From Escherichia coli (GTDB lineage Bacteria; Pseudomonadota; Gammaproteobacteria; Enterobacterales; Enterobacteriaceae): DNA of 2,037 bases. Every line of letters begins with the position of its first letter. Within the stretch, counting starts at the first letter, position 1. Location: the NCBI RefSeq assembly GCF_003334405.1, contig NZ_QOWM01000040.1; one strand, written 5' to 3'. Below, piece by piece: positions 1 through 1,201 of this stretch. The notes below the pieces were generated by a model. That model was not told where the DNA came from. It saw only the letters and a program-made list of their open reading frames with translations, and did not search any database. The position numbers and the translations under genes were made by a program.

Positions 1-846
1 AACCAGATGGACCCGGTGTACACGCCGGCGCGAAAAATCCACCTGTACCACTGCGACCATCGCGGCCTGCCGCTGGCGCTCATCAGCACGGAAGGGGCAA
101 CAGCGTGGTGCGCAGAATATGATGAATGGGGCAACCTGCTGAATGAAGAGAACCCGCATCAGCTGCAGCAGCTTATCCGGCTGCCGGGGCAGCAGTATGA
201 TGAGGAGTCCGGCCTGTATTACAACCGCCACCGCTATTATGACCCGCTGCAGGGGCGATATATCACTCAGGATCCGATTGGACTGAAGGGGGGATGGAAC
301 CTGTATGGATATCAATTGAATCCGATATCAGACATCGACCCCCTGGGTTTATCTATGTGGGAGGATGCAAAATCGGGGGCATGTACTAATGGTCTTTGCG
401 GCACACTATCCGCTATGATAGGTCCAGATAAATTTGATTCTATAGATAGCACCGCATATGGCGCCTTAAATAAAATAAATAGCCAATCTATTTGCGAAGA
501 TAAAGAGTTCGCTGGTTTAATATGTAAGGATAATAGTGGCAGATATTTCTCAACAGCACCTAACCGAGGAGAAAGAAAAGGATCATATCCATTCAATAGC
601 CCTTGCCCTAATGGTACTGAGAAAGTATCAGCTTATCATACTCATGGTGCAGATAGTCATGGAGAATATTGGGACGAAATATTTTCAGGTAAAGATGAGA
701 AAATAGTTAAAAGTAAAGATAACAATATCAAGTCATTTTATTTAGGTACGCCCAGTGGTAATTTTAAAGCAATAGATAACCACGGGAAGGAAATAACAAA
801 CAGAAAAGGATTACCTAATGTCTGCAGAGTTCATGGTAATATGTAA
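1..846 (+). CDS. rhsB: Rhs family protein, C-terminal portion (5'-partial): end of conserved Rhs core plus variable C-terminal toxin domain (CT) of unassigned fold
   Basis: Open frame from nt 1 (the gene begins upstream) to TAA at 844-846. The translation carries the Rhs core-end signature [42 protein letters not shown]. Composition drops right after the second DPxGL, from about 58% GC to about 33% GC (hand counts of sampled 60-nt stretches), as expected for a conserved core fused to a variable toxin tip. The symbol is a recollection that the 127-aa downstream ORF followed by an H-repeat matches the K-12 RhsB element; it may instead be an orthologous Rhs locus. Confidence 0.85.
271..351 (+). 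other. Rhs core/CT demarcation motif: DPIGL (271-285), 17-residue spacer, DPLGL (337-351); probable autoproteolysis and core/tip boundary
   Basis: Read directly from the translation: D89-P-I-G-L93 and D111-P-L-G-L115. In Rhs and YD-repeat proteins the DPxGL-(~18 aa)-DPxGL motif marks the end of the conserved core and lies next to the site where the C-terminal tip is released. Confidence 0.8.
806..810 (+). promoter_or_regulatory. Shine-Dalgarno (AAGGA) for the immunity gene, 7-nt spacer to ATG 818
   Basis: The sequence aaaAGGAttacctaATG is seen directly. It lies inside the 3' end of the rhs coding sequence, consistent with translational coupling. Confidence 0.55.
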
Positions 847-1201
847 AAAAATATTGTTTAGGAACTGTGTCATTGTATCTTTGTTTGTTTTTACATACAA
901 CACATGGGCGCAGTGTAATAATAATATTAAAATAATGCGCAAGTATGAAAGTGAAGGTAAATATACCGTTAGAAATTTGGTTAAAAATAAAGCTATAGCA
1001 TTGGAATTAGCTGAGATATATGTTAAGAATCGTTATGGGCAGGATGCCGCAGAAGAAGAAAAACCATACGAAATCACTGAGTTAACAACAAGTTGGGTTG
1101 TTGAAGGTACCATTCACTCAGACCAAATTGCTGGTGGGGTTTTTATTATAGAAATAGGCAAAAATGATGGGAGAATTCTGAATTTTGGCCACGGAAAATA
1201 A
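818..1201 (+). CDS. yhhH: Putative cognate Rhs immunity protein (127 aa) encoded immediately downstream of and overlapping the rhs CT
   Basis: ORF 818-1201 with an SD 7 nt upstream. It overlaps the rhs stop by 29 nt in a different frame and is AT-rich like the toxin tip, the typical arrangement of Rhs CT/immunity pairs. Length and position match my recollection of K-12 yhhH (127 aa, between rhsB and yhhI). The N-terminus [33 protein letters not shown] is hydrophobic and signal-peptide-like. In-frame alternative starts exist at 833 and 935, but neither has a comparable SD. Confidence 0.75.

Follow-up and report, generated by a model that had tools for sequence, protein, structure and literature searches.

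The immunity gene yhhH of Escherichia coli starts inside the tail of the toxin gene rhsB, and the most probable explanation (at roughly 0.6) is that it is translated by Shine-Dalgarno (SD)-directed initiation at the ATG at position 818 (ATG818) on a transcript shared with rhsB, with translational coupling optional. In this scheme, an AAGGA element 7 nt upstream would direct ordinary initiation at ATG818, within an A/U-rich, unstructured stretch of mRNA that also carries the end of rhsB. The 29 bases shared by the two genes would specify a conserved toxin tail in one frame and the first ten residues of YhhH in the other, and those ten residues would form the sequence-tolerant n-region of a signal peptide. 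Because the overlap would encode only this removable n-region, it would cost the mature immunity protein nothing, and the lack of cost would explain the persistence of an unusually long overlap. We propose that the overlap arose in the RhsB/YhhH clade by an upstream move of the immunity start into the toxin tail, and that toxin and immunity protein are co-expressed mainly from the shared transcript; coupling by ribosomes finishing rhsB would be possible but not required. We infer the start used in vivo, the cleavage and export of YhhH, and co-transcription. The overlap itself is of small importance; tightly packed or overlapping toxin-immunity genes are expected. It may illustrate that dual coding over a long stretch can be nearly cost-free where one of the two products is affected only in the sequence-tolerant, removable beginning of a signal peptide.

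The rhsB-yhhH locus

The window, meaning the whole 2,037-nt stretch that was analysed, is the E. coli K-12-type rhsB-yhhH-(HEAT-repeat pseudogene)-yhhI locus. Approximately 2,000 complete genomes match it at 99-100% identity, and some 2,700 have most of the locus. In MG1655 (RefSeq, b3482/b3483), rhsB occupies 3619192..3623427 and yhhH 3623399..3623782, which gives the same 29-nt overlap; the junction sequence, start and stop are identical to those of the window, which differs from MG1655 by two substitutions, at 461 and 1039, both outside the junction. The overlap is therefore already known as the standard annotation of the K-12 locus. For this reason, and because what the shared bases contribute to YhhH is only the front, likely removable, of an export signal, we regard it as an ordinary feature. 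The features discussed below are as follows.

1-846, plus strand: 3' part of rhsB, comprising the end of the Rhs core (RHS Pfam match) and then the variable toxin tip; the ORF extends beyond the left edge of the window
448-804, plus strand: DUF4329/Tox-JAB-2 toxin domain, residues 148-266 of the window ORF (E = 3.7e-39)
806-810, plus strand: SD-like AAGGA for yhhH, 7 nt before ATG818, encoded by Lys-Gly codons of rhsB
818-820, plus strand: annotated (RefSeq) and most likely yhhH start, invariant in all lineages examined
818-846, plus strand: 29-nt dual-coding overlap, N V C R V H G N M stop in the rhsB frame and the first ten residues of YhhH in the yhhH frame
818-910, plus strand: predicted Sec signal peptide of YhhH, residues 1-31, with K10, K11 and R15 in the n-region, a hydrophobic core at 17-27 and the predicted cleavage site T-W-A|Q
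833-835, plus strand: alternative in-frame ATG (Met6 of YhhH) with a weak SD, which would give a 14-nt overlap
841-846, plus strand: last rhsB codon, ATG, and TAA; this ATG is reported as a cell-free initiation site (PMC9825163)
995-1198, plus strand: Imm-NTF2-2 immunity domain, YhhH residues 60-127 (PF15631, Pfam E = 3.4e-26); stop codon at 1199-1201

The preliminary description of this DNA had placed AAGGA at 806-810, an ATG at 818, a TAA at 844-846 and a 29-nt out-of-frame overlap between them. The sequence and the ORF list agree with all of these positions, and RefSeq gives the same rhsB end and yhhH start. The rhsB-frame ORF ends ...CAT GGT AAT ATG TAA, with the TAA at 844-846, and the 127-codon yhhH ORF opens in a different frame (818 mod 3 = 2, against frame 1 for rhsB). 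The SD begins within codon 267 of the window ORF and ATG818 overlaps codon 271, so that both lie within the last 13 codons of the toxin gene and nine toxin codons are shared. An in-frame TAA at 794-796 makes ATG818 the earliest possible start in the yhhH frame; the later ATG935 named in the preliminary description is codon 40 of that frame.

By its domains, the window holds an rhsB toxin tip of the JAMM-fold Tox-JAB-2/DUF4329 type and its cognate immunity gene yhhH, with both toxicity and neutralisation putative. The Rhs core of the window ORF is recognised by the RHS Pfam model (E = 4e-16) and ends in a PxxxxDPxGL-type boundary motif (DPLGL, 337-351). The reading of the downstream gene as an immunity gene behind an Rhs toxin tip is borne out (Imm-NTF2-2, E = 3e-26; DUF4329/Tox-JAB-2, E = 4e-39); it lies directly downstream of the toxin on the same strand, and a like pairing occurs in L003, L006 and L014 of our set of related loci. 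The same domain pair on an Rhs scaffold, Tox-JAB-2 (DUF4329) with Imm-NTF2-2, was described by Zhang et al. 2012 (PMC3482391). In the parts of that survey dealing with the pair, Imm-NTF2-2 is given for E. coli only, whereas an exhaustive search here returned 510 homologues across metagenomes; likewise, those parts propose a nuclease role and do not describe export of Imm-NTF2-2, whereas most members here have signal peptide- or lipobox-like N-termini. Literature searches for yhhH, DUF4329, Tox-JAB-2 and Imm-NTF2-2 returned in-silico mentions only, with no experimental paper on the pair, and a search for overlap or coupling of Rhs immunity genes found nothing relevant. Among solved structures, no sequence relatives were found for the RhsB tip or YhhH, and when the YhhH model was searched with Foldseek, no PDB entry matched significantly.

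At the core/tip boundary marked by DPLGL, GC content drops from 0.57 (1-340) to 0.37 (341-846), in keeping with the existing view that Rhs tips are acquired, along with their immunity genes, as foreign cassettes.

Conservation of the overlap within the RhsB/YhhH clade

The preliminary description had suggested comparing the overlap in homologous Rhs tips. This comparison confirmed that the immunity start lies inside the toxin gene and that relatives within the RhsB/YhhH clade keep the 29-nt layout, while distant pairs differ (-1, -1 and +9). The sequence AAAAGGATT (804-812), ATG818 and TAA844-846 are invariant in 7/7 lineages, five of them intact (68-83% YhhH identity) and two represented by orphan fragments (L009 and L002). 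Another eight contigs, which represent four diverged intact lineages (L005, L006-L008, L010 and L011-L013), have the exact 29-nt overlap as well; a DUF4329 match is recorded for the upstream ORFs of two of these contigs, and the toxin-frame translations of the others align with the RhsB tip. The N-terminus M[SF]AEF[MI]..C[KN]K is retained in proteins with 65-83% identity to YhhH, where it is followed by a hydrophobic stretch and then W-A. In the seven-lineage alignment the AAT at 817-819 is never AAC, a change that would be silent in rhsB.

Nucleotide diversity along the junction was as follows.

692-805, toxin only: 0.230
806-817, SD and spacer: 0.067
818-846, overlap: 0.117
847-934, signal-peptide region: 0.302
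935-1198, immunity domain: 0.154

Diversity in 806-846 is thus low relative to both flanks, so that conservation peaks locally over the dual-use stretch, with variable sequence on either side, albeit in a small sample; of 830 segments of 41 nt, it has the 64th lowest diversity. Toxin wobble sites are invariant at 10/14 positions in 804-843 compared to 65/155 upstream (Fisher p = 0.048, from 4-5 lineages and 41 nt). Since the bases of ATG818 and its SD at the same time encode the conserved toxin residues K-G-L-P-N-V, conservation could reflect either gene and does not by itself tell the two causes apart.

Outside this clade, the arrangement of toxin and immunity genes varies. The junctions at the five K-12 rhs loci and in distant DUF4329/Imm-NTF2-2 pairs (negative values denote overlap) are listed here.

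rhsA-yibA (K-12): +20 nt
rhsB-yhhH (K-12): -29 nt
rhsC-ybfB (K-12): -1 nt
rhsD-ybbC (K-12): +39 nt
rhsE-ydcD (K-12): -17 nt
distant DUF4329/Imm-NTF2-2 pairs: -1 (L014), -1 (L020) and +9 (L017)

The spread of these values contradicts the earlier view of the 29-nt overlap as the usual arrangement. Across the loci compared, tight linkage is the rule and the 29-nt overlap is specific to the RhsB/YhhH clade, in which the immunity start has likely moved upstream into the tail of the toxin gene. The last toxin codons of L014 and L020 contain a GGAG-type SD. The rhsD-ybbC locus combines a homologous toxin tip (51% identity), including the tail and its cysteines, with a homologous immunity protein that also has a signal peptide, in this case with a lipobox-like LFAC. 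However, rhsD and ybbC do not overlap; they are separated by a 39-nt spacer, and ybbC has a strong SD, AAGGAG (-9.3 kcal/mol).

A predicted signal peptide at the N-terminus of YhhH

Residues 1-31 of YhhH look like a Sec signal peptide, with the expected charges, core and small residues, and the protein is probably cleaved after Ala31. Signal peptides were called by a crude hydropathy rule (cut-off 2.0) together with inspection. The core of YhhH (residues 17-27) has a mean hydropathy over 11 residues (KD11) of 2.38, with values of 1.6-3.1 across lineages; a hydrophobic stretch followed by W-A is present in all six lineages, in two of which the hydropathy maximum falls below the cut-off of 2.0. 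The T-W-A|Q site of YhhH is conserved in relatives as G-W-A followed by N or D. The AlphaFold model of YhhH is in keeping with this organization, with a helix at residues 3-29, a lower-confidence linker and a confident domain at 51-127, most of which has pLDDT > 90 (10-residue block means of 89-98). From the homologues found, 112 full-length distant representatives were assessed; a signal-like N-terminal hydrophobic stretch is present in 98 of them, including 26 with an additional lipobox-like motif.

Many database variants of YhhH read ...LFLHTTHGR... in the region corresponding to 866-900. These variants carry frameshifts in the T-rich run TTTGTTTGTTTTT, within the part that codes for the signal peptide, and could represent either real pseudogenisation or sequencing error.

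Toxin tail and direction of constraint

It had also been proposed that the immunity gene limits how far the end of the toxin tip can diverge. Part of this stands, as diversity falls over the SD and the overlap (0.067 and 0.117 versus 0.230 and 0.302) and the wobble sites show the bias described above. However, the tail is kept where there is no overlap and the immunity frame absorbs most of the changes, so that the direction of constraint seems mostly reversed and the proposal is at best half the story. The tail motif LPN.CR[VI]H is also conserved in relatives lacking the overlap (L014, L020 and RhsD). RhsD ends in PGLSSVCIPYHD and the two distant tips in GLPNQCRIHANGEIY and SLPSACRVHSNGDIY, and most of the tail is overlapped by nothing in these relatives. 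The toxin model stays confident as far as Arg160 of the tip (Arg274 of the window ORF); pLDDT drops below 50 in the final three residues alone. At the nine variable sites of the overlap, classified by a hand count from the alignment table of non-pseudogene lineages, changes are nonsynonymous at 8/9 in the immunity frame and at 4/9 in the toxin frame: five sites are silent in the toxin and alter the immunity protein, one shows the reverse, and three change both. The immunity N-terminus therefore absorbs change, which fits its presumed nature as a tolerant, removable n-region.

Probable initiation at ATG818 and alternative explanations

Predicted duplex energies with the anti-SD were -5.4 kcal/mol for ATG818, -1.7 for ATG833, -2.4 for ATG841 and +0.9 for ATG935, and thus favour ATG818. 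By itself the SD of ATG818 is unremarkable or moderate, as 17% of all window positions score as well as -5.4 kcal/mol. ATG818 is never lost among the lineages compared, whereas ATG833 has been lost twice, to ATA in L006-L008 and to ATT in the K-12-like L022; in L006 and L022, ATG818 is the sole surviving start upstream of the hydrophobic core. Initiation at either 818 or 833 would yield the same mature protein after cleavage at Ala31, and either start overlaps rhsB. TTG854 was also considered as a start and rejected, since it is TTT, CCA or TCA in relatives and has no SD.

The literature searched contained no experiments on the start site, export or expression of yhhH, and the TRAINSPOTTER supplements make no mention of yhhH, rhsB or ybbC. 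Table S3 of the INRI-seq study lists a site at yhhH +23 (ATG, out of frame, non-annotated, 89 CPM, 4/5 replicates), and in its yhhH entry this site is seen in the cell-free assay only, with no in vivo Ribo-RET signal (PMC9825163). The +23 site corresponds to ATG841, the last codon of rhsB with TAA directly after it, and the MG1655 sequence is the same as that of the window here. Against SD-directed initiation at ATG818, ATG841 rather than ATG818 is the only initiation signal recorded on the yhhH fragment in that entry, and it is a cell-free one. For ybbC, the same source reports the annotated start, which also gives a signal peptide, as detected both in vitro and in vivo by Ribo-RET (PMC9825163).

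The preliminary description had also held that immunity protein is made whenever toxin is made. As co-expression, this follows from the presumed shared transcript, but as translational coupling it is overstated, given the separate SD of yhhH, the lack of a masking structure and the existence of orphan modules. A single-sequence fold over the SD and ATG gave z = -0.10, with no significant structure, and the seven-sequence consensus fold contained only a weak 10-pair hairpin (-2.6 kcal/mol). No stable or conserved RNA structure therefore covers the SD or ATG, coupling of the unfolding type is unsupported, and on these values we rejected RNA structure masking the SD and ATG as a coupling device. 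The junction resembles classical coupled pairs (ATGA or TAATG, and the coat and lysis genes of phage fr) in having a stop and a start that overlap on the same strand. It differs from the classical -4/-1 pairs in that the overlap is 29 nt long and the downstream start, with its own SD and no masking structure, does not appear to be incapable of initiating alone. Neither of the orphans L002 and L009 has an intact toxin, yet both preserve the SD and ATG; in L009 the immunity ORF is intact as well, which suggests that independent initiation is sufficient.

The two orphans (L002:3001-3435 and L009:~812-1259, corresponding to window ~757-1201) are independent of each other, their homology to the window beginning within a few bases, at ~757-760; each retains the last ~60-87 nt of the toxin gene. 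In L002, a pentapeptide-repeat ORF has been joined in frame with the toxin remnant, and the immunity gene carries a frameshift.

Three other explanations were weighed against SD-directed initiation at ATG818. According to one, ribosomes finishing rhsB at TAA844-846 step back and restart at the nearest ATG in the yhhH frame, which would be ATG833, 11 nt back, where it is present and otherwise ATG818, 26 nt back, so that immunity is tied to toxin synthesis. The genes do overlap on the same strand, the region is unstructured and would not block scanning, both ATGs lie upstream of the signal-peptide core and lead to the same mature protein, and ribosomes engage ATG841, right at the stop, in the cell-free assay cited above. 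There is also a precedent in phage fr, whose coat and lysis genes are coupled at -38 nt, with ribosomes selecting whichever start is closest to the stop (reviewed in PMC12548453). However, reinitiation becomes sharply less efficient with distance, and the great majority of native coupled pairs are at -4 or -1 (PMC10666635, PMC12548453), ATG833 is missing from two lineages, ATG818 has a conserved SD of its own, and orphan modules have an intact immunity ORF with no intact toxin ORF upstream. We therefore consider termination-reinitiation unlikely as the principal route. A very improbable alternative, and the one the preliminary description had named as its refuting case, is that the overlap is an annotation artefact and that YhhH is translated only from ATG935 (Met40) as a cytoplasmic protein, perhaps from an independent promoter inside the tip. 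It draws on the Pfam domain beginning only at residue 60, on several database gene calls that start at MRKYES, and on an AT-rich tip that could hide promoters. Those 88-residue gene calls stem from frameshifted or truncated contigs, though, and a consensus scan found no plus-strand promoter-like site upstream of 818, which is a weak negative. ATG935 lies downstream of the putative signal peptide and has no SD, and the codon at this position is TTG in L006. Moreover, the 39 codons from ATG818 to ATG935 are free of stops in six diverged lineages at ~30% nucleotide divergence, an outcome reached by 2.2% of shuffles at 28% GC, and other frames contain up to 6 stops. Together with the hydrophobic stretch and W-A kept in those six lineages (two of them below the 2.0 cut-off) and the signal-like N-termini of 98/112 distant homologues, these open codons contradict initiation at ATG935 alone.

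It is also possible that the overlap has no selected role, being a by-product of the start shift that was fixed by drift in one clade and persists because changes would damage the toxin tail. Consistent with this, junctions vary freely in the family (-29, -17, -1, +9, +20 and +39), the toxin tail is conserved without any overlap, and the immunity residues encoded by the overlap vary freely. This account largely agrees with SD-directed initiation at ATG818 and differs only in denying a benefit; however, the invariant toxin wobble sites in the SD (804, 807 and 810) and in the ATG (819) hint at selection on the initiation signals, and we judge the absence of any role to be improbable.

Production of an RhsB-YhhH fusion by programmed frameshifting was considered separately and rejected. 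Inspection by eye of 797-843 revealed neither an X XXY YYZ heptamer nor a prfB-like +1 site, and a fusion would bury the signal peptide inside the protein.

Potential activity of the toxin tip

DUF4329 Rhs tips are called RNases in several in-silico surveys of T6SS effectors, and Zhang et al. suggested a nuclease role for Tox-JAB-2 in their treatment of the family (PMC3482391). The tip has invariant E...HTH...S..D residues and mostly conserved cysteines; it matches the E, H[ST]H, S and D signature and has a JAB/deaminase-like fold. An immunity family that looks mostly exported argues for periplasmic action and, together with a cysteine-rich toxin of JAMM-like fold, against the RNase label, and on the sequence data a periplasmic metallopeptidase role for the DUF4329 tip seems at least as likely as an RNase role. 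A broader proposal, which we put forward tentatively and would rate slightly below even odds, is that export of the immunity protein is what makes the long overlap tolerable, and that the DUF4329 tips of RhsB and RhsD are periplasmic, disulfide-stabilised metallopeptidases of the JAMM type rather than cytoplasmic RNases or nucleases. If so, the same 29 nt would encode a conserved toxin tail with a mostly conserved cysteine and the disposable n-region of a signal peptide. If the toxin does act in the periplasm, its substrate would better be sought among envelope proteins or peptidoglycan-linked peptides; the seemingly exported immunity family calls into question an RNase label that has been copied among in-silico surveys.

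Rearrangements at related and neighbouring sequences

In one E. coli assembly (L021:2220-3384), an RhsC-type tip is followed at a 1-nt overlap by a chimeric gene, in which YhhH sequence takes over from a YbfB-like N-terminus, MKYIIFLFRAIW..., precisely at W-A-Q-C. The position of the join indicates that recombination, or possibly misassembly, swapped the tip and the signal-peptide part of the immunity gene together.

Downstream of yhhH, 1291-1689 is a yibA-like HEAT-repeat remnant, interrupted by a stop at 1549-1551 and annotated by RefSeq as a pseudogene (yrhC in MG1655). Homology of the remnant to intact yibA stops near 1655, just 5' of the ISEc1/H-repeat transposase gene yhhI, which starts at 1797.
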